Part shown: positions 2,324-56,412 of the stretch, piece after piece
Layout of the letters: every line of letters begins with the position of its first letter
Position numbering within the stretch: position 1 is the first letter of the stretch
NCBI GenBank assembly: GCA_037146775.1
Contig: JBAWWL010000005.1
Coordinates: forward strand, 33,848 to 97,847
DNA length: 64,000 nt
Direction: 5' to 3'
Source: Candidatus Omnitrophota bacterium
GTDB lineage: Bacteria > Omnitrophota > Gorgyraeia > Duberdicusellales > 4484-171
The notes under the pieces: model-generated
The model's input: only the letters and a program-made list of their open reading frames with translations
What the model was told of the DNA's origin: nothing
Databases searched by the model: none
Translations under genes and position numbers: made by a program

Positions 2324-3664
2324 ATGAAGACAGAATTTTCTATTCATAGCCTTAGCGTAAAGAGAAAAATCTGGATTGCTATTTCGCTTGTTACCTGCAT
2401 CCCTTTCATTCTTCTGTTCCAGTATCTTAGCGGTTACCATATTTCTTTTTGGGCCGGCATGGCAGCGCTCGTGCTTGTTCTGTTAGGCTGGTGGATTGTT
2501 TTTGAGGTTTTTTCTTCAATCGCCAAACTCTATTCGCAATCAAGGAAGACGCTTGAAAAAATAGGCGAATACCCCCCGCTGATAACCAACGAAGTGGAAA
2601 GCCTTGATTCGGTCATTAATATTCTTTCTTCAAAAGTAAAAAGCAGCTTCGAGCAGCTCAAGGAATTTAGCCAGAAAACAGACGAGCTTAGCAAAGAAGT
2701 ATCGAAGAAAGTTTTTGTGTTATCAACCATACTGCAGGCAAACGATTTATTTTCCAAAGAAGTGCCTTGCGAGGAAATACTGCAATTTTTCATCCAGCGT
2801 TTATCCGAAACCTTGCGCATGAAAGTGGCCTTTTTCGCCTGCCGCAGCAATGAGGCAGGGAAATTGGTGGTGGTTACGTATATGGGAGTGGATGTTTCCA
2901 AAGTTGAGAATATTTTTGAAAAAGATCAAGCCCAGCTATCTAAAATAAAAAGGCCGGTAGTAGTTGATGCCAAAAACAAGTCCGGCGCCTATGCGGTGTT
3001 ACCCAAAGAATTGGGGACAGAAAATATTGTTCTTAACCCGGTAATATCAAAGGGTCAAATCATCGGCCTGTTGTGTGTCGGCAACAATGACGATAGTTTT
3101 GTGTTCAACGATGACGATCTGAACACCTTAAATCTTTTCTCGCAGAATGTTTCCCTTATCTGGGAACACGAGAAGCTCTCTGTCAAGGTAGATGAGCTTG
3201 AGGTGTTTGATTACTTGACCGGTTTGTATAACGAAAAGTTTTTAATAAAACGTCTGGATGAAGAGATCGGTAGGGCTTTAATTTATCAGCGGCCGTGCGG
3301 TTTCTTGTTGCTGGAAATATCGAATTACGATGATTACCAGAAAAACGTGGGGCTTTTGGAGGCCGAGAAGCTGGTTAAAAAAGCGGGAAAAATTTTTAGA
3401 GAAACTCTGCGGCCTATCGATATTCCCGCTAGGCTTGGGCCGAATCGCCTCGGCGCAATACTGATCGAAAAAAATAAACGGCAATCACAAACGGTTGCGC
3501 AGAGCGTCAAAGAAAGATTGATCTACGTGTTTAAAGAGCAAATCGACCTGACTTTTTCGGTGGCTGAGAACCCCATAGACGGCACTACCGCCCAAGAACT
3601 CATACAGTTCGCCCAAACTCACATTAGCCCGTCAGGAGCCAATGAACTCCCCCAAAAGGATTGA
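2324..3664 (+). CDS. membrane protein with a degenerate GGDEF domain (intact I-site RxxD, active site GGEEF replaced by GPNRL)
   Basis: N-terminal TM helices. GGDEF-fold start DYLTGLYNEKFL. RPID-IPAR-LGPNRL aligns to PleD RAID-LPCR-YGGEEF. Confidence 0.6.
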   Translation: MKTEFSIHSLSVKRKIWIAISLVTCIPFILLFQYLSGYHISFWAGMAALVLVLLGWWIVFEVFSSIAKLYSQSRKTLEKIGEYPPLITNEVESLDSVINILSSKVKSSFEQLKEFSQKTDELSKEVSKKVFVLSTILQANDLFSKEVPCEEILQFFIQRLSETLRMKVAFFACRSNEAGKLVVVTYMGVDVSKVENIFEKDQAQLSKIKRPVVVDAKNKSGAYAVLPKELGTENIVLNPVISKGQIIGLLCVGNNDDSFVFNDDDLNTLNLFSQNVSLIWEHEKLSVKVDELEVFDYLTGLYNEKFLIKRLDEEIGRALIYQRPCGFLLLEISNYDDYQKNVGLLEAEKLVKKAGKIFRETLRPIDIPARLGPNRLGAILIEKNKRQSQTVAQSVKERLIYVFKEQIDLTFSVAENPIDGTTAQELIQFAQTHISPSGANELPQKD

Positions 3665-4082
3665 GAAGCCTCTTGGCCAGATCTTGGTAGAAAGAGGTGT
3701 GATTAACCCCACACAACTCGAAAGGGCTCTTGATCTTCAGAAGAAAGAAGGCGGCCTTATCGGCGAGGTAATCGTAAAACTTGGTTTTGCTAAAGAGGAA
3801 GATATTGCCCATTGCCTTTCATTGCAATTCGGCTTTCCATACCTGCCCCTTGAAAACTACGAGGTATCCAGAGAGGTGGTTAGCCTTATCCCGAAAGGCG
3901 TCGCCAGCCACTACTGTTTGATTTCCCTCGATAAGATAGGCAATACCGTTACTATCGCTATGGCTAATCCGTTAAATCTTCAGGCAATAGAAGATTTGGA
4001 AGATTTAACCAAGAGTGATATTCAGGTATTTGTGAGCACGCCGACGGACATACGCAAATGTATAGAAAAATTCTATACCTAA
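3642..4082 (+). CDS. stand-alone T2SSE_N / MshEN-type domain protein (putative c-di-GMP receptor)
   Basis: 146 aa. Two 24-aa motifs PLGQILVERGVINPTQLERALDLQ and LIGEVIVKLGFAKEEDIAHCLSLQ separated by a 5-aa spacer (KKEGG). Both fit RLGxxLLxxGLLxxxxLxxxLxxQ. Confidence 0.65.
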   Translation: MNSPKRIEKPLGQILVERGVINPTQLERALDLQKKEGGLIGEVIVKLGFAKEEDIAHCLSLQFGFPYLPLENYEVSREVVSLIPKGVASHYCLISLDKIGNTVTIAMANPLNLQAIEDLEDLTKSDIQVFVSTPTDIRKCIEKFYT

Positions 4083-4120
4083 AAGTTTCAGTTTTGTGCC
4101 GTTCCCGCCGCTAGGATATT

Positions 4121-5851
4121 ATGCTGAAAGAAAAATTTACCGATTATTTGCTTGAGAAAAAATTAATTTCCAAAGAAGACCTGGAAAAGGTCCTTACTCT
4201 TCAGAAAGAGAAGGGCGGTTCCCTGGTCGAACTTTTCATAAAGCTTGGGTGCATGCAAGAGGCTCAACTTCTTAATATTCTTTCCGGCTACCTCTCTATT
4301 CCGCCGATGCGGGTGATCAATCTGGCTATCGCCCAGGAGACTATCAGCTTAATTTCCGAACGTTTTGCCCGCAGTTTCCACGTTATCCCCATCGGTAAAA
4401 TCGGTAACAGCATTACTCTGGCTATGGCAGACCCCCTGAATGTGGTGGTTATCGACGACTTAAAGAAAATTACCGGTTGTGAGATTAACCCGGTGATTGC
4501 GCCTTTGTCGGAAATAAAAGAAGCCATTATTGCCCATTACACCCGGCCGCCCACAGACTCTATCGAAGAGATCATCAAGGGCCAAAAAGCGGAAGCAATC
4601 GAAATTATTAAGCAGGAAAAAGTATTGCAGAACCAAACCCTGGAAACCATTGACGAGGCGCCGGTAATGAAATTTACCAACTCGCTGCTTAAACGGGCTG
4701 TGTCTGACCGGGCATCGGACATCCTGTTAGAGCCTTTAGAGAAATCAAGCAGGGTAAGATTCCGTATCGACGGGCTTCTGCGGGAGGTAGAGACATTTTC
4801 CAAAAAAATCCACCCTTTTGTGATATCGCGCATCAAGGTTATGTGTAATCTTAATATCGCGGAGCACCGCTTGCCTCAAGAAGGAAGGTTCCGTAGCTCA
4901 ATTTTAGAGCGTAGCGTAGACTTCCGAGTTTCGATTGTGCCTTCCAGCTTAGGGGAGAAAGTTGCTATGCGTATTTTAGATAAAAATACCGCGCTTTTGG
5001 ATTTGGAGCTGTTGGGCTTTGAGGCTGACGTGCTCAAACAGATGAGAGCAGACAGTAAAAGGCCTCACGGTTTAATGTTGGTGTGCGGCCCGACCGGCTC
5101 AGGTAAAACCACCAGCCTTTACTCGGTTATTTCCTATATTTATAGTCCGGAGCGTAACATTATCACTGTAGAAGACCCTATAGAGTATCAGTTAAAAGGT
5201 ATTAACCAGGTAAGCATTAATCCCGCCATCAACCTGACTTTTGCTTCGTGCTTGCGCTCAATCTTGCGCCAGGATCCGGATATTATCATGGTGGGTGAAA
5301 TCAGGGATTTTGAAACCGCAGATATTACCATCAAGGCGGCTCTCACCGGCCATTTGGTTTTTTCAACCCTGCATACCACAACCAGCGCCGGCTCTGTTAC
5401 CCGTCTTATCAATATGGGCATTGAACCATTCCTGCTTTCTTCTACTTTAATAAGCGTTCTCTCTCAGCGTTTAGTGAGAAAGCTATGCCCCAAATGCAAA
5501 GAAGAGGCAGTGATCCTTGAAAGTATCCGGGAAAAATATGGTATCGATAAAAAAACGAAACTATACAAGGCAGTAGGCTGTAACTCCTGCCAGCAGACAG
5601 GATATAGAGGCCGTATTGCTTTAAGCGAGTATTTACCGATTTCGCCAAAGATACGGTTTTTAGTGAATGCGGCCACTTCGGAGCACGTGATAAAAAAAGA
5701 AGCCCGTATGTTGGGTATGCGTACGCTGCGTGAAGACGGCATCCTGAAGCTCAACACCGGCCTCACTACTTTAGAGGAAGTGCTTAAGGTAACGGGGGCG
5801 GACGAACCATTGGGGTCAGAAGTCAGAGGTCAGAAGACAGAAGACAGATGA
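4121..5851 (+). CDS. pilB: type IV pilus assembly ATPase PilB/GspE family (paralog 1)
   Basis: 576 aa. N-terminal T2SSE_N domain. Walker A GPTGSGKTT, Asp box, His box. C-terminal tetracysteine (CPKC...CNSC). C-terminal tail GSEVRGQKTEDR is encoded by the heptamer-repeat array. Confidence 0.85.
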   Translation: MLKEKFTDYLLEKKLISKEDLEKVLTLQKEKGGSLVELFIKLGCMQEAQLLNILSGYLSIPPMRVINLAIAQETISLISERFARSFHVIPIGKIGNSITLAMADPLNVVVIDDLKKITGCEINPVIAPLSEIKEAIIAHYTRPPTDSIEEIIKGQKAEAIEIIKQEKVLQNQTLETIDEAPVMKFTNSLLKRAVSDRASDILLEPLEKSSRVRFRIDGLLREVETFSKKIHPFVISRIKVMCNLNIAEHRLPQEGRFRSSILERSVDFRVSIVPSSLGEKVAMRILDKNTALLDLELLGFEADVLKQMRADSKRPHGLMLVCGPTGSGKTTSLYSVISYIYSPERNIITVEDPIEYQLKGINQVSINPAINLTFASCLRSILRQDPDIIMVGEIRDFETADITIKAALTGHLVFSTLHTTTSAGSVTRLINMGIEPFLLSSTLISVLSQRLVRKLCPKCKEEAVILESIREKYGIDKKTKLYKAVGCNSCQQTGYRGRIALSEYLPISPKIRFLVNAATSEHVIKKEARMLGMRTLREDGILKLNTGLTTLEEVLKVTGADEPLGSEVRGQKTEDR

Positions 5852-5890
5852 CAGAGGACAGAGGACGGAAAGCAGAAGACAGGGGACAGG
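5814..5890. repeat. tandem heptanucleotide repeat array (GWCAGAR, about 11 units), locus A
   Basis: gtcagaa gtcagag gtcagaa gacagaa gacagat gacagag ... read directly from the sequence. Overlaps the pilB1 3' end. Confidence 0.8.
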
Positions 5891-6256
5891 GTGAAAATTA
5901 AAAGTGTAAAAGATTTGAAAGTATATAATATTGCTTACAGTTTAGCAATGGAAATATTTACAACAACAAAGAGTTTTCCCAAAGAAGAAATTTATTCATT
6001 AACAGACCAGATTAGGCGTTCTTCCCGTTCGGTGGCGATTAACATAAGGGAGGGTTTTGCAAAACGAAGATACGAGCAAGTATTTACACGTCATTTAAAT
6101 GATGCTTTTGGTTCTAGTGAAGAAACGAGAGGTTGGCTGAATTTTGCTAAAGATTGTCAATATATATCGCAGAAAATATACGAAAAATTAGATAAGCAAT
6201 ACGATGAGTTAAACGCAATGATATACGTTCTTATGAATAGTTGGCACGCTTTCTAG
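5891..6256 (+). CDS. four-helix-bundle protein (23S rRNA intervening-sequence protein family, PF05635-like)
   Basis: 121 aa. Family-typical N-terminus (IKSVKDLKVYNIAYSLAMEIF) and SSRSVAINIREG motif. GTG start. Confidence 0.6.
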   Translation: MKIKSVKDLKVYNIAYSLAMEIFTTTKSFPKEEIYSLTDQIRRSSRSVAINIREGFAKRRYEQVFTRHLNDAFGSSEETRGWLNFAKDCQYISQKIYEKLDKQYDELNAMIYVLMNSWHAF

Positions 6257-6284
6257 GTAAGAGCGATCAGGGGGGCAGATAATA

Positions 6285-6330
6285 TCTGACTTCCGACTTC
6301 TGACCTCTGTCTTCTGATCTCTGTTTTCTG
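6285..6330. repeat. tandem heptanucleotide repeat array, locus B (inverted orientation relative to locus A)
   Basis: tctgact tccgact tctgacc tctgtct tctgatc tctgttt is the reverse complement of GWCAGAR units. Confidence 0.8.
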
Positions 6331-6339
6331 GAGGAAAAC

Positions 6340-8019
6340 GTGAATGTAAAAGAGAAAATTTTAGACTACATCAAAACAACCAAGCCGATAGAGAAGGGGC
6401 TTTTGAAAAACATTGAAGGCACGGCAGATTATACTCATTTTAAACACATGCTTATTGAACACAATTTAATCAGCGAGGAGGAGTTGCTTCTTGTATTTTC
6501 CAAAGAATTCAAAATGCCTTTTTTAGACTTAAAAAAATACCGCATACCGCACAAAAGCAAAGATTTGATTCCCCGGGAAACCGCTTTTAAATACCGGGTT
6601 TTCCCTTTGTGTAAAATCGGCACTGTCCTGACTATCGCTACTTCTAATCCCCTGGATATTATTGCTTATGACGATATAAAAATAATTACCGGCGTTGAAA
6701 AGGTGGATTTGGTTCTTTGCCGCGAGGAAGATATTTTGAAAGCGCTCGATAACCTATACAAAATGGATGATATCAGCAAATTAGTAGATGAAGATTCTTC
6801 TATCGAGGTCGGTGAAGCTTTCGAAGCGAAAGAATCTTTAGAAACTTTAATCGAAGAAAGCAGCCGCCCGCCGATCGTGCGAGCGGTTGATTTGTTTATT
6901 TATAATGCGCTCAAAAAACGGGCGTCGGATATTCATATTGAACCGTATCAGGACAGGCTGCTGGTAAAATACAGGGTGGACGGAGTATTGTGCGAAGAGT
7001 TTAATTTTCCCAAAAAGAACCAGCAAGCTGTTTTAGCGCGCTTAAAAATAATTTCTTCACTGGATATTACCGAATCGCGCCTTCCCCAGGACGGCAGGTT
7101 CAAAGTTAAGTTTGAGGATCGGGAGATTGATTTTAGGGTATCCAGCCTGCCTACGAATTTCGGGGAAAAATTCGTATTGCGGGCGTTGGATAAAGAAAAC
7201 CTTTCTATTGGTTTAAGAAAATTAGGTTTTTCCGAAGAGCCGCTTAGACTCTTTGAGGGTGCGATTAAGGCGCCATTCGGCATTATTATAGTTACCGGTC
7301 CCACGGGGAGCGGGAAATCTACAACCCTGTATTCCATTGTCAGCCAAATAAATACGCCCGAGAAAAATATTGTCACTATCGAAGACCCCATAGAGTACCA
7401 ACTTGAAGGCATTACTCAATTGAGCGTGAGTACGGACATAGGGCTTACTTTTGCCGCCGGCTTGCGTTCAGTGTTACGCCAGTCACCGGATATTATCATG
7501 GTGGGGGAAATCAGAGATTCGGAAACCGCGGACATTGCTATTAAAGCCGCACTTACCGGAGAGATCATACTTTCTACTTTACATACGAATACGGCGGTAG
7601 GCGCGCTTACCCGGCTCATTGATATGGGTATAGAGCCGTTTTTACTTGCTTCCTCTCTGGTTGCTACCACGGCCCAACGTTTAATACGCAAGCTATGCCA
7701 GAAATGCCGGGAAAAATATCAGATAGAAGAAGAGGTCTTGAAAAAATTAAATGTCAACACTAAAACGAACGAATTTTACCGGCCTAAAGGCTGTCATTAT
7801 TGTAATGATACCGGTTATCATGGACGCATTGCGATCTTGGAAGTTTTGCTTTTAGATGATAGAATGAAAGAAATGATTGTTGAGCGCCGTTCAGAAGATG
7901 AGATTACCCAGTATGCCATCAAAGAGCGCGGATACAGGCCTTTGCGTGAAGATGGTATTTTGCGCTGCGTGGAGGGTGTTACTTCGCTTGAAGAAGTGTT
8001 GAGGGCGACGACGGAGTAG
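6340..8019 (+). CDS. pilB: type IV pilus assembly ATPase PilB/GspE family (paralog 2)
   Basis: 559 aa. GTG start with GGAGG SD. N-terminal T2SSE_N-like domain. Walker A GPTGSGKST. Tetracysteine CQKC...CHYC. Confidence 0.85.
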   Translation: MNVKEKILDYIKTTKPIEKGLLKNIEGTADYTHFKHMLIEHNLISEEELLLVFSKEFKMPFLDLKKYRIPHKSKDLIPRETAFKYRVFPLCKIGTVLTIATSNPLDIIAYDDIKIITGVEKVDLVLCREEDILKALDNLYKMDDISKLVDEDSSIEVGEAFEAKESLETLIEESSRPPIVRAVDLFIYNALKKRASDIHIEPYQDRLLVKYRVDGVLCEEFNFPKKNQQAVLARLKIISSLDITESRLPQDGRFKVKFEDREIDFRVSSLPTNFGEKFVLRALDKENLSIGLRKLGFSEEPLRLFEGAIKAPFGIIIVTGPTGSGKSTTLYSIVSQINTPEKNIVTIEDPIEYQLEGITQLSVSTDIGLTFAAGLRSVLRQSPDIIMVGEIRDSETADIAIKAALTGEIILSTLHTNTAVGALTRLIDMGIEPFLLASSLVATTAQRLIRKLCQKCREKYQIEEEVLKKLNVNTKTNEFYRPKGCHYCNDTGYHGRIAILEVLLLDDRMKEMIVERRSEDEITQYAIKERGYRPLREDGILRCVEGVTSLEEVLRATTE

Positions 8020-8065
8020 AACAGATGACAGACGTCAGAAGACAGAAGGCAGAGGGCAGAAGGTT
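8019..8065. repeat. tandem heptanucleotide repeat array, locus C
   Basis: aacagat gacagac gtcagaa gacagaa ggcagag ggcagaa, immediately after the pilB2 stop. Confidence 0.75.
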
Positions 8066-8083
8066 GGGGGATTAACGCGTTGC

Positions 8084-8131
8084 ACGATTAACGAATTGAG
8101 GTATTAAACAATTTTTTAATTCGTTAATTCT
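8084..8131. promoter_or_regulatory. inverted repeat (ttaacgaatt ... aattcgttaa) in a TTAAT-rich intergenic region upstream of pilC
   Basis: 10-bp arms separated by about 20 nt. Function not established. Confidence 0.3.
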
Positions 8132-8167
8132 TTAATCATTTAATGCATTAATTATTTAATAAAAACT

Positions 8168-9370
8168 ATGGCGAGTTTTTCTTATCATATCAAAAACAGG
8201 GAAGGCAAGGATGTCAAGGGTATTGCCGAAGCCGAGTCAAAAGAAAAACTAATAGAGTATTTTCAGAAGGAAGGTTTTGTCATTTTCGATATTTTCGAAA
8301 CCAAGCGGAAAACAAAAGTTTCCCGCTACGGAAAAATTTCCAGCGAAGACTTAGTGATTTTTTCCCGCCAACTTACCACCTTGATTGAAAGTAACATTTC
8401 CATCGTCGAAGCTTTAGAGATTCTTAAGTCCCAGGTGGAGAAGCCGTTTTTTAGAGAAGTATTAGGCATGGTGTTGAAAGATGTACGCGAAGGCTCTTCG
8501 CTTTCCAGCGCTTTTGCCAAGCACGCGCGGGTATTTCCGGAAATCTATATCAGCATGGTTGAAGCAGGTGAGGCCAGCGGAAATTTAGCATCCATTTTAG
8601 AGCGCGTGTCAGGGTATCTTGAGAAAAGCAGCGCTCTACGCAAAAAAGTAATTTCATCTTTATATTACCCCGTGATTATCGTTCTGATGGCAACTGCGAT
8701 TACCGGCTTCCTGCTTTTGAAGGTCATCCCGACTTTTAAGAGTGTTTTTGATTCGTTGGGAGGAAAGCTTCCTCTACCTACACAAATTTTAATATTAGTC
8801 TCCAACTTTTTACAGGCATATTTCGTTTATCTTGTTATCGGATTTGTTGCGGCTATTATTTTATTTTTGCGTTATATCAACACCAACAGAGGAAAACGGC
8901 AATACCACAAGTTACTTATCCGGCTGCCGATCGTAGGTGATTTAGTTAAAAAAATTGCCATTGCCCGTTTTTCCCGCACTTTTGCCACCTTAATCAAAAG
9001 CGGCGTATCGATTATCAAATGTTTGGACATTGTAGCTAATACTTCCGGCAACAAAATTATCGAGGACGCGGTGAAAAAATCAAAAAAACTTATCCAGGAA
9101 GGCCAAACCATTTCTACTCCCCTGGAAGAAAGTGGTATTTTTCCCCCTATGGTAGTTAAGATGGTGGCCATAGGCGAAAAAAGCGGTAAATTGGAGGAGA
9201 TGCTTTCCAAGATAGCGCAATTCTACGAAGAACAGACTGATGCCATGGTAGCCGGACTTTCCAGCCTGATTGAGCCGGTTATTATCGCCTTTTTAGGTGT
9301 GATTGTGGGTGGTATAGTTGTTTCTTTATTCCTACCGATTTTCCAGATTACTCAATATCTGAATAAATAA
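8168..9370 (+). CDS. pilC: type IV pilus inner-membrane platform protein PilC/GspF family
   Basis: 400 aa. Duplicated GspF domain. Three TM segments. Typical PilC N-terminal cytoplasmic domain. Confidence 0.85.
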   Translation: MASFSYHIKNREGKDVKGIAEAESKEKLIEYFQKEGFVIFDIFETKRKTKVSRYGKISSEDLVIFSRQLTTLIESNISIVEALEILKSQVEKPFFREVLGMVLKDVREGSSLSSAFAKHARVFPEIYISMVEAGEASGNLASILERVSGYLEKSSALRKKVISSLYYPVIIVLMATAITGFLLLKVIPTFKSVFDSLGGKLPLPTQILILVSNFLQAYFVYLVIGFVAAIILFLRYINTNRGKRQYHKLLIRLPIVGDLVKKIAIARFSRTFATLIKSGVSIIKCLDIVANTSGNKIIEDAVKKSKKLIQEGQTISTPLEESGIFPPMVVKMVAIGEKSGKLEEMLSKIAQFYEEQTDAMVAGLSSLIEPVIIAFLGVIVGGIVVSLFLPIFQITQYLNK

Positions 9371-9551
9371 CAATTTCAAGCTTAAATTTACTGCTTCCCA
9401 GCCCAGTTTGTCTATACTTCCTCTCTCTATCCCCCCACTCAATACTCACTACTATATACTCACGACTATGTTCGAGAACGCAATTTAGCTTCTTGAGCGC
9501 CAAAAGTTATAACTATTCAATGTTTATAAGGCTTTCTGGCTCCTGTCTAAA

Positions 9552-9580
9552 TTGACAAGTGAGGGGGGATGTGGTATATT
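9552..9580 (+). promoter_or_regulatory. sigma70-type promoter (TTGACA, 17-nt spacer, TATATT) about 300 nt upstream of pilA1
   Basis: Exact -35 hexamer. 4/6 -10 match (TATATT vs TATAAT). 17-nt spacing. Confidence 0.45.
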
Positions 9581-9887
9581 CAAATTGAGCCATAATGTTC
9601 TTTGAAAACAAAGAGATTCTTAAGATTAAGCGATTTTATTTAGTATAGGTAGAGGAAATAGTAATAAATTACTTGTGTTTATATATAATTCGTATTTAAA
9701 TACTGTTATATTCTATCCCGCTATTTCTATCATCTATATCTACTTTTAATCTTAAGAAATTATTACGAAATAAGCACAATTTATCTTTTTCTTCATACAT
9801 ATATTTTATATTGAGCAAAGCTCTGATGGAAGGAGGTGGATAAAGGGCAAAAGGGCTTTGAGTGATTAACCAAAAAAGGAGGATACA

Positions 9888-10310
9888 ATGAAAAAAGGTT
9901 TTACTCTTGTAGAAATTATGATCGTAGTCGCAATCATTGCCTTATTGGCGGCCTTAGCCATACCTAACCTGTTAAGGTCAAGATTAAATGCTTCGGAAGG
10001 GTATGCTCAAGCAACCTTAAGAGCTATTTCGACGGCTGCTGAAAGTTATGCTGCTGCCCATGAGGGGAAATATCCAGCGGTCAGTCTCACTGCAGATTTA
10101 TTTGGCGCTGACCCAAAATATATCAACAAAGATTACGTAGCGGATTGTACTGCTGGAAGTCCTTGTCAGGGGTATAGTTTTGCTTATACCGCTGCTGTTA
10201 CGGGTTACACTTCAACCGCCACACCGCAAGGAGCCCTTGTTGCTAAGGCAAAATCATACAGTATTACTACTGGTGGTGTTTTGACCGGCGCAGTTGCTGC
10301 GGCAGAATAG
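9888..10310 (+). CDS. pilA: type IVa major pilin (prepilin, N-methylation site G|FTLVE)
   Basis: MKKG|FTLVEIMIVVAIIALLAALAIPN class-III signal peptide. C-terminal Cys pair (DCTAGSPCQGY). AAGGAGG SD. Confidence 0.85.
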   Translation: MKKGFTLVEIMIVVAIIALLAALAIPNLLRSRLNASEGYAQATLRAISTAAESYAAAHEGKYPAVSLTADLFGADPKYINKDYVADCTAGSPCQGYSFAYTAAVTGYTSTATPQGALVAKAKSYSITTGGVLTGAVAAAE

Positions 10311-10330
10311 GACTTAGTTGTTTCGATTAT

Positions 10331-10366
10331 AACCGCCTCTTTAAAAAAGAGGCGGTTTCTTATTTT
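10331..10366 (+). terminator. rho-independent terminator after pilA1
   Basis: aaccgcctcttt-aaaa-aaagaggcggtt stem-loop followed by tcttatttt. Confidence 0.8.
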
Positions 10367-10478
10367 CTGGCAGATATTTTATGTAAATATCTGCTTTACG
10401 TTGATGCTCCATACGTATATAATAAAATATAATCTTCCTTGCATCGAATAGCAGGATTTTCCAAGGTTACGGTGAAGA

Positions 10479-10922
10479 ATGATGAAAAAATATAGCAAGA
10501 ACCATTCGATATTTAAGACATTTACTCTGGTGGAAATAATGATTGTGGTGGCCATCATAACAGTATTGGCGACATTACTCAGTCTTAACCTTTTAAGGGC
10601 AAAATTACACAGCGCTGAAGCCAATGCTCAAGCGACGTTACGGGCTATCTCTACTGCCTTAGAGTCCTATGCGAGCGCGAAAGCAGGGGCTTTCCCTGTG
10701 GGTAACAATCTTAGCCTGTTATATAACGAAGACCCAAAATATATCAACAAAGATTATGTAACTGACTGCACTGTTGGAAGCCCTTGCCAGGGATATGCTT
10801 ATAGCTGCAACTTGAGCTTAGCAGGTTATACCTGCAGCGCAACTCCTCAGGGTAACTATCATAACGCCAAAACATTTACCGTTGAAACCGGCGGCGTTTT
10901 GAAGGAATTTGCTAACCAATAG
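10479..10922 (+). CDS. pilin paralog with atypical leader (Thr instead of Gly at -1)
   Basis: MMKKYSKNHSIFKT|FTLVEIMIVVAII. C-terminal block DPKYINKDYVTDCTVGSPCQGY is nearly identical to pilA1. Confidence 0.7.
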   Translation: MMKKYSKNHSIFKTFTLVEIMIVVAIITVLATLLSLNLLRAKLHSAEANAQATLRAISTALESYASAKAGAFPVGNNLSLLYNEDPKYINKDYVTDCTVGSPCQGYAYSCNLSLAGYTCSATPQGNYHNAKTFTVETGGVLKEFANQ

Positions 10923-11093
10923 CCTTATTTCCCGCCAAACGTCATCATGTTTTTACCACTTTGGTAAAATATTCTAGCTTGCAGGCCAGGGACGGACAAC
11001 GCGATTGTCTCTTTTTATAAACCTTGAAAATAAAGCCTTTTTCACAAGAGATACGTTGACAATGCAATACCTGAGTAATAGAATAATACCAAA

Positions 11094-12089
11094 ATGCAAT
11101 TTCCATACACCAAATTTCTAAATTTTGGCGAGTTTTTCAATAAAAAGAACGAAGATTTTGTCGCTATTAATGTAGGCAATTATCACGTCAAGGGGTTGAT
11201 AGTAAAATCAGGCAAACCAACCGACTATTTTTTGAAAGAAAGAAAAGACATATCAACAACCCTCAAAGAAATCTGGCAAGAAAAAAAGATTACTACCGAT
11301 AACGTAGCAATTTCCGTTAAAGACCCCACCACATTGACCAGATATTTTCCTTTTCCGAAAATCGATAAGAAAAAACTGCGCCAGAGCCTGTTTTACGAAC
11401 TCAATAAACACATTCCTTTTTCTCCGGAAGAGGTATATTTTGATTTTGCTCTTTTAGGAGACGCAAGTCCAACGCAATCATGGTTATTGCTCGCCGTAGC
11501 TAAAAAAGAATTTATCAATAACATACTGGATATCTTCACTCGCGAAAAACTAAACGTCACGTATATCAGTTTAGACAGTATTTGCCTGGTGAATTTTTTT
11601 CTTCATTACTACGATCAGCACAAAAAAACAAATACTTGTCTTTTAGATGTCGGAAGCAGCTTTTCGACGCTGACGATATTGCGTTCTGGCGTACCGTTTT
11701 TAACCAGGGATATAAGCTTTAGCGCTAAGGATGTTTTTGGGGTTATTTCTCATATCAAAAATATTCCGTTACCTGAAATAGAAAAGCAGCTACTTTTGCC
11801 TAACAACCAGGAGCTGCTTGAGCTCGCGCAGGATAGCCTGACAAATTTGTGCAAAGAGGTGAAAAACTCCTTTGATTATTTTGAAGTGAACAAAGGCGAG
11901 CATATAGAACAAATGTATCTTTCCGGTGGCTTAACCTATCTGGCGGGTGTCGAAGCTATTTTTAAGGACTATTTAGGCATTGAGACCGCGTTATTGAGTA
12001 ATACGCAAGCCGCGGCAGCGGGATTTTCTGACGAGGCCTTTCAAAAGCTAAAGAGAAGTTTTACGGTTGCTTTCGGCCTTTTGGTATAA
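11094..12089 (+). CDS. pilM: type IV pilus assembly protein PilM (actin-like ATPase fold)
   Basis: 331 aa. Position upstream of pilNOPQ. Acetate/sugar-kinase-like fold motifs. Confidence 0.75.
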   Translation: MQFPYTKFLNFGEFFNKKNEDFVAINVGNYHVKGLIVKSGKPTDYFLKERKDISTTLKEIWQEKKITTDNVAISVKDPTTLTRYFPFPKIDKKKLRQSLFYELNKHIPFSPEEVYFDFALLGDASPTQSWLLLAVAKKEFINNILDIFTREKLNVTYISLDSICLVNFFLHYYDQHKKTNTCLLDVGSSFSTLTILRSGVPFLTRDISFSAKDVFGVISHIKNIPLPEIEKQLLLPNNQELLELAQDSLTNLCKEVKNSFDYFEVNKGEHIEQMYLSGGLTYLAGVEAIFKDYLGIETALLSNTQAAAAGFSDEAFQKLKRSFTVAFGLLV

Positions 12090-12094
12090 TAGCC

Positions 12095-12649
12095 ATGGAA
12101 AAAATAAGTATTAACTTAAATCCGCAAAAGCAACAACCCGTAAGCTCTTTCTTGGGGCAGGGCCTGCGCTATGCTTTACTTGCGGCGTTAGGTTTAGGCA
12201 TAGTGGTAATTATTGGTGGTATTTTTTTAATTATCCAAGCGGGCATACTTGGGTATTATGAAGGAAAATGGAAACAATGGGCAGATAAGTTTCAAACCAT
12301 TGATGTCATCAAGAAAGAAGTAGCCAACTTAGAAAGTGAGCGTAACGAATTCCAGAAAATAATCACTCCGCAAATCCAGATAGCAGTAATTTTTCAGGAC
12401 ATTTTTGTGTCTCTGCCCAAAAATACCTGGCTTGAACAGCTTAGTTTTAAGAAAGATTCGGTTAGCCTTCGGGGGTACGTGATTAAGATAGGAGAAGATT
12501 ACCTGGCAACATTAGATACGTTTGTCGACGCTCTTAAGGAAAAAAAATATTTTTCTTCAAAATTTAGCAAAATAACCATAAAAAGTTCGCAGACAAAAAA
12601 TTATAATGGAATGGAGGCAATGGAGTTTGTTATAGAATGCGTAAACTAA
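12095..12649 (+). CDS. pilN: PilN-like bitopic membrane protein
   Basis: 184 aa. Single N-terminal TM helix. Synteny between pilM and pilO. Confidence 0.6.
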   Translation: MEKISINLNPQKQQPVSSFLGQGLRYALLAALGLGIVVIIGGIFLIIQAGILGYYEGKWKQWADKFQTIDVIKKEVANLESERNEFQKIITPQIQIAVIFQDIFVSLPKNTWLEQLSFKKDSVSLRGYVIKIGEDYLATLDTFVDALKEKKYFSSKFSKITIKSSQTKNYNGMEAMEFVIECVN

Positions 12650-13182
12650 AAATCGAAAGAAACGTTATAATCTTTACCGCAATTATTGCAATCGCTGTCT
12701 TAGAGCTTTTGGTGTTATTGCCCCTGGAGGTGTCTCGAATTGTTGCTGTGCAGAAGAAGATTTCTGGCATAAAACGTAATCTTGTTACTATCGAAACAGA
12801 CTGGCCCAATAAAGATACCTATATCCGCAACCAAGAGGCAATTAGAGAGGCAATTGTGGGTACGCATGGAAAATTTGTCAGCCCACAAGAGGCATCCAAC
12901 CTGTTTTCTTTTATTTCTTCGGGAGGAAAAAAATTTAACGTAGAAATAAAAGTACTTAACCCTGCTGATTTGCAGGAATACGCTTCTACCAAGGCCGGAA
13001 AAATAAAATATTTGCCTATTACTATTTCTTTGCAAAGTTCGTTTCACAATCTTGCTCGCTTTTTGGAATATCTGCAGACCAGTCAATATTTCTTTGAGGT
13101 CAAGGAACTTAAAATTGGTTCTGGTTTTCCCACAAATGCGGTAGAAATGGTGTTATGTGGTTTAGTAAAAACAAAAGAATAG
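12637..13182 (+). CDS. pilO: PilO-like bitopic membrane protein
   Basis: 181 aa. Single TM helix. Synteny. Confidence 0.55.
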   Translation: MRKLKIERNVIIFTAIIAIAVLELLVLLPLEVSRIVAVQKKISGIKRNLVTIETDWPNKDTYIRNQEAIREAIVGTHGKFVSPQEASNLFSFISSGGKKFNVEIKVLNPADLQEYASTKAGKIKYLPITISLQSSFHNLARFLEYLQTSQYFFEVKELKIGSGFPTNAVEMVLCGLVKTKE

Positions 13183-13508
13183 TTATCGTGGCCGGCTTGG
13201 CGTTGCTGTGTGCCTGTACTCTTTTTGCCAAAGAAGAGAAATACCCTTTTGACCAGAATACTCGCGATCCTTTTTTACCTTTGGTCAGCAAGACAGGCCA
13301 ACTGCTTATACAAAAAGAAGCGACGCAGGGCGGTATGGTGCTTAAAGGTATCATCTATTCGTCTCGAGGGAGCTTAGCAATTATAAGTAATGAAGTATTT
13401 AAAAAAGATGATAAAATAAATGATTATAGTATAATGAAAATAGGCCGAAAGAAAGTTATTTTAAAAAAAGGTAAAGAAATACTTGTTTTAAAGTTGGAGG
13501 GAAAATGA
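13155..13508 (+). CDS. pilP: PilP-like lipoprotein
   Basis: 117 aa. Signal peptide with Cys. Conserved RDPF motif. Position immediately before the secretin. Confidence 0.5.
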   Translation: MWFSKNKRIVIVAGLALLCACTLFAKEEKYPFDQNTRDPFLPLVSKTGQLLIQKEATQGGMVLKGIIYSSRGSLAIISNEVFKKDDKINDYSIMKIGRKKVILKKGKEILVLKLEGK

Positions 13509-15133
13509 TCAAATATCGAATGTCTGATAATATGGGTCAGAAGTCAGAGGTCAGAAGTCAGAGGTCAGAAGTCAGAGGACAGATGTCAGAGGACAGACGA
13601 CAGAGGTCGGATGTCAGATTTTTCTGTTTTCTTCTTTGTGCCTTCTGTTTTCTGACAACAGCCTTCTACCCTCTGTTTTCTTTTGCCCAGGAGGAGATTA
13701 TTCCGGTTATTAAATTTAAAGACGCGGATATCAAGGTGGTGCTGCAATCTATAGCCCAGAAGGCTGTTAAGGACGGGCGGAAGGTAAATATTGTTATCAG
13801 CCCAAAGGTGGAGGGCTTGGTGACAGTTGATTTGGAAAGTGTTAACTGGCAGACTGCGCTCAAGGGTGTGCTCAATGCCTACGGTTATAGTTATCGTTGG
13901 GCAGGGGAGAACATTATTTTGGTAGCGACAATTGATGAAATTAAAGAGCGCGAGGTGCAAGATAAAGAAAGACAGGAAATCGAAGTTCCCAAGATCAAGA
14001 TTTTTAAATTAAAATATATTGATGCAAATGATGCGAAAAAAACTATTACTCCTTTGCTTTCTCCGGTTGGTAAAGTGTCTGTTTTGGAGGCTACTGGCCA
14101 AGCAGGATGGGAGTTTGGAGACGATTTTGCTAAGCGTAAGAGGGCAGAGCAGGGACAAATTTCCCGCACTAAATCATTAATAGTTTCCGATGTTTCAAAA
14201 AGCCTGGAAGAGATAGAGAAATTGCTGGTTGAGGTAGACATTATGCCCAAACAGGTGTTGATAAAAGTCAAGATTATGGAAGTTGACAAGGATGTGCTAG
14301 ATGACATTGGTTTTGAATGGGGAACAGGAAAAGGTGGAGCCGGAGGAGTGTCGTTTGATCAGTTAGACGTTAATGGTAAAAATACAAAAAATTTAGGTGG
14401 TCGCATGTGGACTGGAGTGGATCCTTCTGTTTTGACAGATGGTGGTTTAAATACGGCCAAAGAAGGATTGAAGATCGATTTTAAGAGTATTACCGGCTCA
14501 CAGTTTGAAGTGATTATGCATGCCTTGGAAAAAGACAAACGAGCAATCACCCTTTCCGCACCTTCTATTTTAACTCTGAACAATCAAGAGGCTTCGATAT
14601 TGGTGGGTTCGAAATTTCCCATAGTCAAAACCCAGGTAAGCGAACAAAGCAACCAGATTATTGGTGGTTCCTTAGAAAAATATCAGGATATCGGTATACA
14701 GTTAAATGTAGTACCGCAAATATGCGGCGAAGAGGAAAATTATGTAAATATGATTCTACACCCGGTAGTTTCAACCAAGACCGGGACTGTGGATATTAAA
14801 ACTACTGCTGACCCGCCGACAATACTTGCGCAATATCCGATGCTTGAGGTCAGAGAGGCGCAAACGCAGGCAGTCGTCAAGGATGGCGAAACCATTGTTT
14901 TAGGTGGTTTATTGAAAGACGCCAAATCAAAAGAATATAGAGGTATCCCGGTTTTAGATAAGCTTCCTTTTTTCGGTTCTCTTTTTAGGCGCGAGGGTGA
15001 TAATAGATCAAAAATAGATTTATTGATCTTTATCACCGCGCACGTGATACGGCAAGGAGAAGTTCTGCCGCAGGAAGCAATAAACATAACTCCGGTTACT
15101 TCCAAGTTCAAAAGAAAACAAAATGTATACTGA
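13505..15133 (+). CDS. pilQ: type IV pilus secretin PilQ
   Basis: C-terminal secretin signature (VLGGLL...RGIPVLDKLPFFGSLFR). The N-terminus is interrupted by heptamer repeats, so the true start may be the ATG at 13583. Confidence 0.85.
   Translation: MIKYRMSDNMGQKSEVRSQRSEVRGQMSEDRRQRSDVRFFCFLLCAFCFLTTAFYPLFSFAQEEIIPVIKFKDADIKVVLQSIAQKAVKDGRKVNIVISPKVEGLVTVDLESVNWQTALKGVLNAYGYSYRWAGENIILVATIDEIKEREVQDKERQEIEVPKIKIFKLKYIDANDAKKTITPLLSPVGKVSVLEATGQAGWEFGDDFAKRKRAEQGQISRTKSLIVSDVSKSLEEIEKLLVEVDIMPKQVLIKVKIMEVDKDVLDDIGFEWGTGKGGAGGVSFDQLDVNGKNTKNLGGRMWTGVDPSVLTDGGLNTAKEGLKIDFKSITGSQFEVIMHALEKDKRAITLSAPSILTLNNQEASILVGSKFPIVKTQVSEQSNQIIGGSLEKYQDIGIQLNVVPQICGEEENYVNMILHPVVSTKTGTVDIKTTADPPTILAQYPMLEVREAQTQAVVKDGETIVLGGLLKDAKSKEYRGIPVLDKLPFFGSLFRREGDNRSKIDLLIFITAHVIRQGEVLPQEAINITPVTSKFKRKQNVY
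13536..13618. repeat. tandem heptanucleotide repeat array, locus D (about 12 units) inside the annotated 5' end of pilQ
   Basis: gtcagaa gtcagag x3 then gacagat gtcagag gacagac ... Translates to SEVRSQRSEVRGQMSEDRRQRSDVR. Confidence 0.8.
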
Positions 15134-55295: not shown

Positions 55296-55404
55296 AAATA
55301 AGGAAAAGATAGGCCAGGCAAGCATTTTTGTATCCTTGTAAAAGCAGCGCAAATATGTTATATACAAGGTGTAAAGTGTAAAAGTGACAATTTGGTATTT
55401 ACCC

Positions 55405-55490
55405 AGTGAAAAGGCAAACCAAGAGTAATCTTGGGACGCAAAGCTAAAGGTCCCGCGAGTAGCGGGAAGCCTGGCTGCCAAAGGGGAGGA
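55405..55490 (+). promoter_or_regulatory. c-di-GMP-I (GEMM) riboswitch aptamer
   Basis: GGCAAACC + 12-nt GNRA hairpin (aagaGUAAucuu) + GGGACGCAAAGC in the same order and spacing as the Vc2 aptamer. Followed by a P2-like hairpin cccgc-gagua-gcggg. Confidence 0.75.
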
Positions 55491-55491
55491 A

Positions 55492-55520
55492 AAACCTTGA
55501 GTCCGCCTCAAGGTTTTTTT
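55492..55520 (+). terminator. intrinsic terminator (riboswitch expression platform)
   Basis: aaccttgag-tccgc-ctcaaggtt followed by T7. Confidence 0.8.
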
Positions 55521-55530
55521 ATGTATAGAC

Positions 55531-55560
55531 AACCCTAAGCTTTGCTTAGGGTTTTTTTTT
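55531..55560 (+). terminator. second intrinsic terminator in tandem
   Basis: ccctaagc-tttg-gcttaggg followed by T9. Confidence 0.8.
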
Positions 55561-55587
55561 GACTATAACCCGTGGAGGGAGGCGACC

Positions 55588-55857
55588 ATGTATAGAGGTA
55601 ATGATATTCCTAGTAGATTGAGGCATCGCGTGATTACCATGCTAAACCGTGAAGAGCTGGATTTCTTGGATAAGTTGGGCAAAGACGCGCTTTTTACTAC
55701 CGGGCACAAGCTTTCTTACAATGAGATCTTAGTCGGCCTGGTTGAATTTGTCAAAGAAATCGGCCTTTCCGGAGAACGCATTGATTCGTACAATGCGCTT
55801 AAAGCAAGGATAGTTCAGCGGGTGCGCACTGTTGCGGGGAAAAACGAACATGAATAG
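55588..55857 (+). CDS. small protein with ribbon-helix-helix-like N-terminal pattern
   Basis: 89 aa. GGAGGGAGG SD. HRVITMLNREELDFLDKLGKD fits the beta-strand/helix-A pattern of CopG/RHH proteins (inference). Confidence 0.35.
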   Translation: MYRGNDIPSRLRHRVITMLNREELDFLDKLGKDALFTTGHKLSYNEILVGLVEFVKEIGLSGERIDSYNALKARIVQRVRTVAGKNEHE

Positions 55858-55894
55858 TATTGTGATATTGAATATGAACAAGAGGAGGTGCCCC

Positions 55895-56371
55895 ATGAAA
55901 AGGACAATCGTTTTCATCGCGTTAGAGCTTGTTTTGTTGTTGGTGGCAGTCAGTCTTTATGCGCAGGCTCCCGGTAAGGTCGATCCGCTTTTGTCGACGA
56001 TGCCCTCGCGAGAAGCGGGCGTGCAGCAGCCATCGATACGGATTGATGAGGAGAATATGAAGTTGATTAACAAAAATACCACTGCGTATACAGAGCCAGC
56101 AAATAAAATGGGCACCGGCATAGTCAATGTAGCTACCGGCTGGGCGGACGTGCCTAAGAAAATTTCCGACAGGTCTGCAGAACAAAATCCTTTGGCCGGG
56201 CTCACAATTGGTTTCGGAGAAGGAGTCGTAACCGGAGTGGCGCGTACTACTGCGGGCGCGCTTGACGTGGCTATGTTTAGTATACCCCCGTATGATGCGC
56301 CATTAATGGAGAGCGAATATAAAGTTAGCAATCCCAACGAGGGATTTAAGATAGATCTTTTAAGTTGGTAA
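55895..56371 (+). CDS. secreted hypothetical protein
   Basis: GAGGAGG SD. Signal peptide MKRTIVFIALELVLLLVAVSLYAQA. Gly/Thr-rich mature region. Confidence 0.4.
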   Translation: MKRTIVFIALELVLLLVAVSLYAQAPGKVDPLLSTMPSREAGVQQPSIRIDEENMKLINKNTTAYTEPANKMGTGIVNVATGWADVPKKISDRSAEQNPLAGLTIGFGEGVVTGVARTTAGALDVAMFSIPPYDAPLMESEYKVSNPNEGFKIDLLSW

Positions 56372-56380
56372 AGATATGAA

Positions 56381-56412
56381 TGGGGCTGTGATGCGACAGC
56401 CCCATTTTCTTT
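56381..56412 (+). terminator. rho-independent terminator
   Basis: tggggctgt-gatgcg-acagcccca followed by ttttctttg. Confidence 0.75.

Follow-up and report, generated by a model that had tools for sequence, protein, structure and literature searches.

We report here a riboswitch of the cyclic di-GMP-I (c-di-GMP-I, or GEMM-I) class in DNA from Candidatus Omnitrophota bacterium (assembly GCA_037146775.1, contig JBAWWL010000005.1, positions 33,848 to 97,847), a stretch of 64,000 nt that was analysed as a whole and is called the window below. The aptamer, followed by two tandem intrinsic terminators, stands at the head of a two-gene operon that encodes an 89-aa protein (ORF1), from an Omnitrophota family that lacks annotation and is predicted to adopt a ribbon-helix-helix (RHH)-like fold, and a 158-aa secreted protein (ORF2). 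In our preferred explanation, to which we give a probability of about 0.6, the element is an OFF riboswitch through which c-di-GMP would shut down transcription of a putative RHH-fold regulator together with a secreted protein. The operon is laid out as follows.

55336-55364, plus strand: putative sigma-70-type promoter, read by inspection of the sequence
55368-55398, plus strand: tandem boxes spaced by 7-8 nt (TGTAAA at 55370, TGTAAA at 55377, TGACAA at 55385 and a degenerate TGGTAT at 55393)
55403-55482, plus strand: c-di-GMP-I (GEMM-I) aptamer, identified by RF01051, a lineage model and covariation
55490-55520, plus strand: predicted terminator T1 (stem 55490-55501 / 55507-55518, U-run to 55520, -13.6 kcal/mol)
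55531-55560, plus strand: predicted terminator T2 (stem 55531-55540 / 55544-55553, nine U to 55560, -14.2 kcal/mol)
55588-55857, plus strand: ORF1, 89 aa, predicted to have a ribbon-helix-helix-like fold, from an Omnitrophota family without annotation; Shine-Dalgarno sequence GGAGGGAGG at 55574-55582
55895-56371, plus strand: ORF2, 158 aa, secreted TIGR04073 protein; Shine-Dalgarno sequence GAGGAGG at 55882-55888
56379-56412, plus strand: operon-closing intrinsic terminator, AAUGGGGCUGU-GAUGCG-ACAGCCCCAUU and then UUCUUU, read by direct inspection

The aptamer, its terminators and its partner gene

The RNA in the window is an ordinary new member of the known c-di-GMP-I class on every feature of membership that could be tested. 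A scan of the entire 64-kb window with the covariance models of Rfam 15 (cmscan) returned RF01051 (c-di-GMP-I) as the sole match, at 55403-55482 on the plus strand, where it scored 63.7 bits (E = 3.9e-10; gathering score 35) and covered the full model (positions 1-87); a lineage-specific covariance model scored the same aptamer at 79.4 bits. The GEMM-I identity proposed in the first-pass annotation, which was made from the sequence alone, is thereby confirmed. The two conserved blocks lie at 55413-55420 (GGCAAACC) and 55433-55444 (GGGACGCAAAGC). They are separated by a GNRA-capped hairpin, as first proposed, and the P2-like hairpin that had been placed after them is present behind GGGACGCAAAGC; the length of 12 nt first given for the GNRA-capped hairpin, however, describes only its inner part, the whole consisting of 6 bp with a GUAA tetraloop and measuring 16 nt.

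Covariation was counted over 56 related aptamers in a MAFFT alignment, in which the inner pairs of P2 are blurred by the alignment itself. In the GNRA-capped hairpin each of the six base pairs has changed on both sides in a compensatory manner, with 100% of cells paired, and the short junction helix is likewise 100% paired. Over the whole structure, pairing reaches 81.6%, compared with 70.4% for shuffles, and the whole-structure covariation score was matched by 0 of 500 shuffles; the compensatory-change check that had been proposed for the aptamer thus came out in its favour. That the match arose by chance, or marks a decayed element without a regulatory role, seems to us hardly credible, given that this was the only Rfam match in 64 kb, at the score and E value quoted above, and that the same position is kept in about 78 genomes with compensatory changes.

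Three aptamer columns, those of G55414, A55440 and C55478, do not vary across the 56 aligned sequences, and we take them to be the equivalents of G20, A47 and C92 of the Vc2 aptamer, from the Rfam alignment and the crystal structures. Because these columns are invariant, the ligand is expected to be c-di-GMP rather than cyclic GMP-AMP (cGAMP), and we infer that the window aptamer binds c-di-GMP. Many of the related loci obtain their best Rfam score with RF03167, the c-di-GMP-I-GGC variant. We rejected the variant reading of these relatives: the diagnostic substitution of G for the first A in GCAAAG is absent, the canonical GCAAAGC being kept in the window and in all aligned relatives, and since the block is canonical in the alignments the RF03167 label reflects competition between two models. 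Separately, the aptamers of six relatives (L005, L061, L063, L066, L072 and L077) contain large additional hairpins, inserted in the second conserved block just behind its GGGGC, and their Rfam scores fall to 35-50 bits, near the threshold.

Both hairpins downstream of the aptamer, each a stem-loop followed by a U-run, are predicted Rho-independent terminators. T1 (AAAAACCUUGAG-UCCGC-CUCAAGGUUUUU, then the U-run) has a 12-bp stem and 7 U, is the minimum-energy hairpin and was also recovered by our own scan; T2 (AACCCUAAGC-UUU-GCUUAGGGUU, then nine U), with its 10-bp stem, was listed by the automated terminator scan. The two tandem terminators and the attenuation architecture described in the first-pass annotation are therefore upheld, with coordinates that were right to within 2 nt. 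The 181-nt leader as a whole folds with a z-score of -4.2 relative to dinucleotide shuffles, and its fold holds the aptamer and both terminators.

The pairing of this aptamer with ORF1 extends across the family. We took 80 ORF1-family loci from species representatives in GTDB and scanned them with Rfam at gathering thresholds: 75 of the 80 have an aptamer of clan CL00126 upstream in the same orientation. Of the five loci without an Rfam match, two are at contig ends and three (L009, L010 and L046) score 28-37 bits with the lineage model R1, so that the linkage is essentially universal. Three near-identical metagenomic contigs (L081-L083) keep the same order of RF-1, riboswitch, ORF1, ORF2 and OsmC; their leaders are about 90% identical, the differences in T1 are confined to its loop, and in L081 and L082 T2 is identical and the whole arrangement is kept nearly base for base. 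The flanking genes of the window, for an RF-1-domain protein upstream and for OsmC and a YHS-permease downstream, are unrelated to the operon.

Several of the relatives carry further riboswitches. A second c-di-GMP-I aptamer in L020 (3784-3879, minus strand, 72.8 bits) has its own promoter and terminators but no ORF downstream, and is oriented convergently towards the 3' end of the TIGR04073 gene; possibly this riboswitch is an orphan or acts in antisense. The lineage model places two aptamers in apparent tandem in L033 (2518-2575 and 2634-2702). L050 has aptamers at 391-517 and 2826-2906, so that a second aptamer lies about 2.4 kb upstream. Five loci (L022, L032, L041, L042 and L047), which appear to share their local gene order, have a thiamine pyrophosphate (TPP) riboswitch (RF00059) about 1 kb ahead of the c-di-GMP-I riboswitch.

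Direction of the switch

At least one intrinsic terminator separates the aptamer from the gene in 65 of the 75 loci with an aptamer, and at least two do so in 20, so the tandem layout of the window is a recurrent design. Two types of terminator with conserved sequences are found in the relatives, type 1 reading ACCCUAAAG-(G)UUUGCC-UUUAGGGU or AACCUUGA-GUUUGCC-UCAAGGUU and type 2 reading CCCUAAGC-UUU-GCUUAGGG. The loop and 3' arm of type 1 are the reverse complement of the aptamer block UAAAGGCAAAC, and the loop region of type 2 is the reverse complement of aptamer GCAAAGCU. Perfect complements of at least 8 nt (8-12 nt) to the terminator's own aptamer occur in 32 of 88 terminators, compared with 1.9 expected from shuffling and a single terminator in a reversed-sequence control, and 30 of these 32 fall on the two ligand-binding blocks. 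With the 5' arm of the terminator blocked, the 3' arm pairs with aptamer positions from about -2 to 11 in most loci. In the window, AGCUUUGC of T2 (55538-55545) is an exact complement of GCAAAGCU in the aptamer (55438-55445), a length of 8 nt that was reached in 1.5% of shuffles, and neither T1 nor T2 shares a nucleotide with the aptamer or the P1 stem.

Because the terminators share no nucleotide with the aptamer, and because the complements target nucleotides that the bound fold buries, the sequences suggest that the riboswitch is probably an OFF switch. We propose that the sigma-70-type promoter would drive a leader composed of the aptamer and the tandem terminators, which, as they do not overlap, could coexist. 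The alternative fold would be an antiterminator, in which the unliganded GGCAAAC and GCAAAGC blocks, together with the G-run of P1 and the linker, would pair with the terminator loops and arms. Bound c-di-GMP would lock the aptamer and allow both terminators to form, stopping transcription before ORF1; at low c-di-GMP, read-through would give the small RHH-fold protein and the secreted TIGR04073 protein.

Several observations weigh against this OFF mechanism. Equilibrium folding without ligand retains the terminators, with a median probability of 0.93 across the loci and of 0.95-0.96 in the window, whose overall minimum-energy fold consists of the aptamer plus both terminators; since the terminators persist at equilibrium in the absence of ligand, the proposed antiterminator would have to win kinetically. 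Furthermore, T1 of the window has no significant complement to the aptamer and shows only a weak pairing from the linker to its loop (GGGGAGG with CCGCCUC). Finally, matrix or exosortase-associated proteins might on physiological grounds be expected to be induced by c-di-GMP, not repressed.

The same parts could instead make up an ON switch: c-di-GMP would let RNA polymerase pass T1 and T2, and high c-di-GMP would thereby induce both the regulator and the secreted protein. Terminators that form by default in ligand-free equilibrium folding are the resting state expected of such a switch, and c-di-GMP is generally an inducer of surface- and matrix-associated proteins, with which the exosortase-associated family of ORF2 would agree. 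We nevertheless regard an ON switch as unlikely: with no nucleotides common to the terminators and the aptamer or P1, the bound aptamer has no evident means of blocking the hairpins, and the conserved complements in loops and arms hit exactly the nucleotides that are sequestered in the ligand-bound fold, which is sensible only if the unbound aptamer acts as the antiterminator. A thermodynamic comparison of ON and OFF was discarded as a test of direction, the terminators being kept either way at equilibrium.

Two known riboswitches of this class offer points of comparison for the proposed OFF switch. The Vc2 riboswitch of Vibrio cholerae reportedly lies upstream of tfoY. It resembles the window in its aptamer class and ligand-contact nucleotides, and in that its target is a small regulator (in the window, a putative one) and neither an enzyme nor a pilin; TfoY, however, belongs to the TfoX family, is not RHH-like and comes from another phylum. 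Vc2 is not known to work through an evident intrinsic terminator, whereas the window has two in tandem. The Cd1 riboswitch of Clostridioides difficile controls the flgB operon, which includes sigD, and is an OFF switch. As in the window, the c-di-GMP-I aptamer of Cd1 is followed by an intrinsic terminator, and its effects are passed on, as is proposed for the window, through a regulator encoded in the operon, here SigD. Unlike the window, Cd1 has a single terminator and governs flagellar genes, and its OFF direction is experimentally established, while for the window we infer it.

ORF1 as a candidate regulator

All named homologues of ORF1 come from Omnitrophota. The family comprises 273 clusters at 90% identity, and a search of 1.8 billion proteins yielded only 199 representatives with an E value of 1e-3 or below. 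Its invariant core, from an alignment of 38 homologues (A1), reads HRVITML-R-E-DFLDKLGKDALF-TGHKLSYNEIL. ORF1 (89 aa) and the secreted ORF2 (158 aa) agree with the first-pass annotation; each is preceded by a strong Shine-Dalgarno sequence. The public gene calls of L081 (452-667) and L082 (898-1113) start ORF1 at an internal Met, giving 71 aa and cutting off the invariant HRVIT segment; because the upstream ATG and the Shine-Dalgarno sequence are conserved, the 89-aa form is the likelier product. A tblastn search of the window found no paralogue of ORF1.

An RHH pattern had first been read from the N-terminus of ORF1, and this assignment is supported, tentatively, at the level of the predicted fold but not of the sequence. 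ORF1 alone has no match in Pfam or NCBIfam, Pfam gave no RHH match for 38 members of the family at E up to 10 or for 127 at E up to 0.01, and profile hidden Markov model (HMM) searches of the Protein Data Bank (PDB) returned no RHH match for the family; sequence-level membership was rejected on these grounds. Comparison by hhalign with single RHH sequences gave at best a probability of 5%, for NikR, and although NikR and CopG aligned in the expected register, neither alignment was significant and controls scored equally low. A first AlphaFold 2 model from a shallow alignment was poor (predicted local distance difference test score, pLDDT, of 61; all-helical) and was not used. The second model, built with 127 diverse representatives, reached a pLDDT of 82.6 and predicts an extended N-terminus followed by helices at 21-38 and 44-57 and an extra helix at 68-85. 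A Foldseek search against the PDB gave nothing below E = 2.

The domain architectures of the family bear on a regulatory role. A PilZ domain is fused to the C-terminus in 26 of the 127 representatives, and a receiver domain to the N-terminus in 2 of them, with the ORF1 domain at the output position. The window ORF1 itself has no PilZ match, the domain being found only in fused relatives; in L050 the riboswitch is followed by an RHH-PilZ fusion. A separate PilZ gene adjoins the ORF1 homologue of L064, and in L005 a GAF-HD-GYP-type gene lies downstream. The fusions and these neighbouring c-di-GMP genes tie the ORF1 domain to c-di-GMP independently of the riboswitch, and by analogy the pattern of PilZ and receiver fusions is that expected of a DNA-binding output module. 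ORF1 would most likely act as a dimeric DNA-binding regulator. The first-pass annotation had suggested a c-di-GMP cascade acting through an RHH repressor, and mentioned neither the near-universal riboswitch link of the family nor its frequent PilZ fusions; because of these fusions the cascade idea is now much better supported than by the window alone.

The promoter region offers a candidate target for such a regulator. The putative promoter consists of a -35 element (TTGTAA, 55336-55341), a 17-nt spacer and an extended -10 element (TGtTATATA, with TG at 55356-57 and the hexamer at 55359-55364), and transcription is predicted to start near 55371. This promoter was not listed by an automated promoter scan of the region and is a reading by inspection; the layout is the same in L081 and L082, and most of 73 related loci have CTTGAAA or CTTGACA, 17-18 nt and then TGnTATACT. 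Between the -10 element and the aptamer, most loci carry 3-6 tandem TGACAA-like boxes with a spacing of 7-8 nt; the array of L031, for example, reads TTTGACAATTTGACAATTTGACAATTTGG. The motif TG[AT][CA]A[AT] occurs 2.9 times per 100 nt upstream of the aptamers and 0.21 times in the rest of the loci, a 14-fold enrichment, and spacings of 7-8 nt dominate (58 of 148 intervals). A distant group of loci has similar boxes (TGTAAATTTATCAATTG) upstream of the -35 element, and because these would be untranscribed, a DNA-level site is favoured.

Among RHH proteins, MetJ and the omega repressor bind tandem repeats, the 8-bp metboxes and 7-bp heptads, respectively. Like these, the ORF1 loci place 3-6 tandem boxes at 7-8-bp spacing beside the promoter of a gene for a protein of predicted RHH fold; unlike them, the boxes here are TGACAA-like in sequence and lie mostly downstream of the -10 element, and their binding is putative. 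Autoregulation of ORF1 through the tandem boxes is a reasonable idea on this analogy, and the boxes may be regarded, speculatively, as a candidate operator for the ORF1 product or as a leader-RNA element. In the minimum-energy fold of the window leader, an outer helix pairs 55391-55396 (UUUGGU, in the last, degenerate box) with 55477-55482 (GCCAAA, the 3' end of the aptamer), and AATTTGG is found in 29 related leaders; the box array may also work at the RNA level.

A different view would be that ORF1 does not bind DNA but is a small helical adaptor, a chaperone or an antitoxin-like partner, and that the boxes have no connection with it, serving in the RNA leader or being decoys that resemble a -35 element. 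Three observations weigh against our own reading of ORF1 and the boxes: ORF1 has not been joined to RHH families by any sequence profile, the boxes look similar to TTGACA, the -35 consensus, and the 64-kb window contains no further box arrays, the motif matches being at chance level and Tandem Repeats Finder (TRF) finding no array. On balance we find the view of ORF1 as an adaptor, chaperone or antitoxin-like partner improbable, as fusion at the output position of receivers and N-terminal to PilZ is typical of DNA-binding output domains, boxes lie untranscribed upstream of the -35 element in the more distant loci, and tandem 7-8-bp boxes are the binding mode of the RHH proteins MetJ and omega. 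ORF2, moreover, is a secreted protein and not a toxin, and a toxin-antitoxin reading of the ORF1/ORF2 pair was dropped, ORF2 being a secreted TIGR04073 protein. For the predicted DNA-binding regulator, no regulon can be named, because the box motif elsewhere in the window does not rise above chance. A metagenome scan for the exact three-box pattern TGACAWWTTGACAWWTTGACA found 80 loci, all unrelated and none with an aptamer; it was discarded as regulon evidence, as the pattern is not specific and says nothing on the regulon.

The first-pass statement that a cascade of this kind had not been described is too strong, since Vc2 acting on TfoY and Cd1 acting on the flgB operon with sigD are precedents. 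An RHH protein is also already connected with c-di-GMP: CdbA of Myxococcus xanthus (PDB 6sbw) binds c-di-GMP directly and is nucleoid-associated (PMC7156744). ORF1 has no detectable sequence similarity to CdbA, and in its family the c-di-GMP input would come through the riboswitch or a fused PilZ domain instead. Within the library searched, we found no paper that puts an RHH-like protein under a c-di-GMP riboswitch, and none that deals with the ORF1 family or with riboswitches of Omnitrophota, and the riboswitch-controlled RHH-like family appears to be new.

Secreted cargo and c-di-GMP signalling in Omnitrophota

ORF2, first described as a protein of unknown function, in fact matches the NCBIfam family TIGR04073 (exosortase system-associated) at 70.8 bits, with a cut-off of 50. 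It is 100% identical to a protein from a Candidatus Omnitrophota metagenome-assembled genome, for which the NCBI name is TIGR04073, and on inspection its N-terminal signal peptide (MKRTIVFIALELVLLLVAVSLYAQA) is typical. No exosortase was found among the window ORFs scanned, and the library searched gave nothing relevant on TIGR04073 or on a c-di-GMP riboswitch with exosortase. The hairpin that closes the operon was listed by the terminator scan on the minus strand; its plus-strand reading, with a U-rich tail, is by inspection. As the first-pass annotation had noted, the controlled operon contains no pilin, GGDEF/EAL or chemotaxis gene.

What stays constant behind the riboswitch is ORF1; the secreted cargo differs between loci. 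A match to the ORF2 profile directly follows the ORF1 homologue in 42 of the 80 loci, and the downstream genes of L013, L022 and L065 score 62.8-77.8 bits with the TIGR04073 model. In the distant loci L051-L080 (for example L056:3307-3609, L078:3303-3650 and L061:1277-1612) TIGR04073 is replaced by another family of small secreted proteins, 85-125 aa long and marked by SCTIPAIPGVNAP and by (K)TIYSR at the C-terminus, which has no match in Pfam or NCBIfam. The third genes of five loci (L013:3782-5368, L022:3718-5346, L029:3779-5368, L040:3698-5203 and L047:3798-5357) encode BNR/Asp-box propellers of about 500-545 aa, with BNR/Sortilin-type (Sortilin/Ycf48-like) repeats in all five scanned, and most other large genes at the third position in relatives have similar lengths; in many relatives the propeller gene that comes next encodes about 520-540 aa. 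The window has no BNR propeller, and OsmC takes the third position instead. About 27 related loci have, in addition, a conserved and very basic micro-ORF of 34-40 aa with its own Shine-Dalgarno sequence between the terminator and the ORF1 homologue (for example L022:2788-2907, L026:2790-2909 and L014:822-926; typical sequence MKRILHKALARAKKQHKKHMNFLKALRLFEGMPLFGIRR). By tblastn, the window contains no copy of the SCTIPAIPGVNAP/TIYSR family or of the basic micro-ORF.

Elsewhere in the window, c-di-GMP also appears at the protein level, in and around a gene cluster with the following features.

2324-3664: GAF-GGDEF protein
3642-4082: stand-alone MshEN domain protein
2324-15133: type IV pilus or secretion cluster, with GAF-GGDEF, MshEN, two MshEN-T2SSE ATPases, T2SSF, a protein with a prepilin-type N-terminal methylation motif, PilM and a secretin

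The c-di-GMP genes that the first-pass annotation had placed near the pilus ATPases are indeed there (GAF-GGDEF, MshEN and two MshEN-T2SSE at 2.3-8 kb), and the cluster as a whole contains three MshEN domains of the c-di-GMP-receptor type. With the GAF-GGDEF protein and the MshEN domains encoded in the window, the organism is expected both to make and to read c-di-GMP.

As an RNA, the element brings little that is new, being a textbook c-di-GMP-I aptamer of the sort picked up by any annotation that uses Rfam. The tandem terminators with built-in complements of the ligand-binding blocks nevertheless form a natural set of platforms for studying the design of c-di-GMP-I OFF switches. Omnitrophota are uncultured, ultra-small and possibly predatory or host-attached bacteria whose signalling is scarcely described. 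Because the ORF1 family is absent from Pfam, lies downstream of this riboswitch in virtually all genomes analysed, has repeatedly been joined to PilZ or receiver domains and has an RHH-like predicted fold, it is a strong candidate for the core c-di-GMP output of this phylum. More tentatively, and as a possibility we would not yet back, the family might represent unrecognised RHH-type transcription factors dedicated to c-di-GMP in Omnitrophota, which would receive the signal through the riboswitch on their mRNA (nearly universal) and through a fused PilZ domain (in about one fifth), would regulate themselves through the boxes, and would act as the main switch for small proteins that are secreted or belong to the envelope, namely the TIGR04073, SCTIPAIPGVNAP...TIYSR and BNR propeller proteins. 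The finding is real and, as an RNA, ordinary; it is of moderate interest because it draws attention to a protein family that lacks annotation and has links to c-di-GMP.

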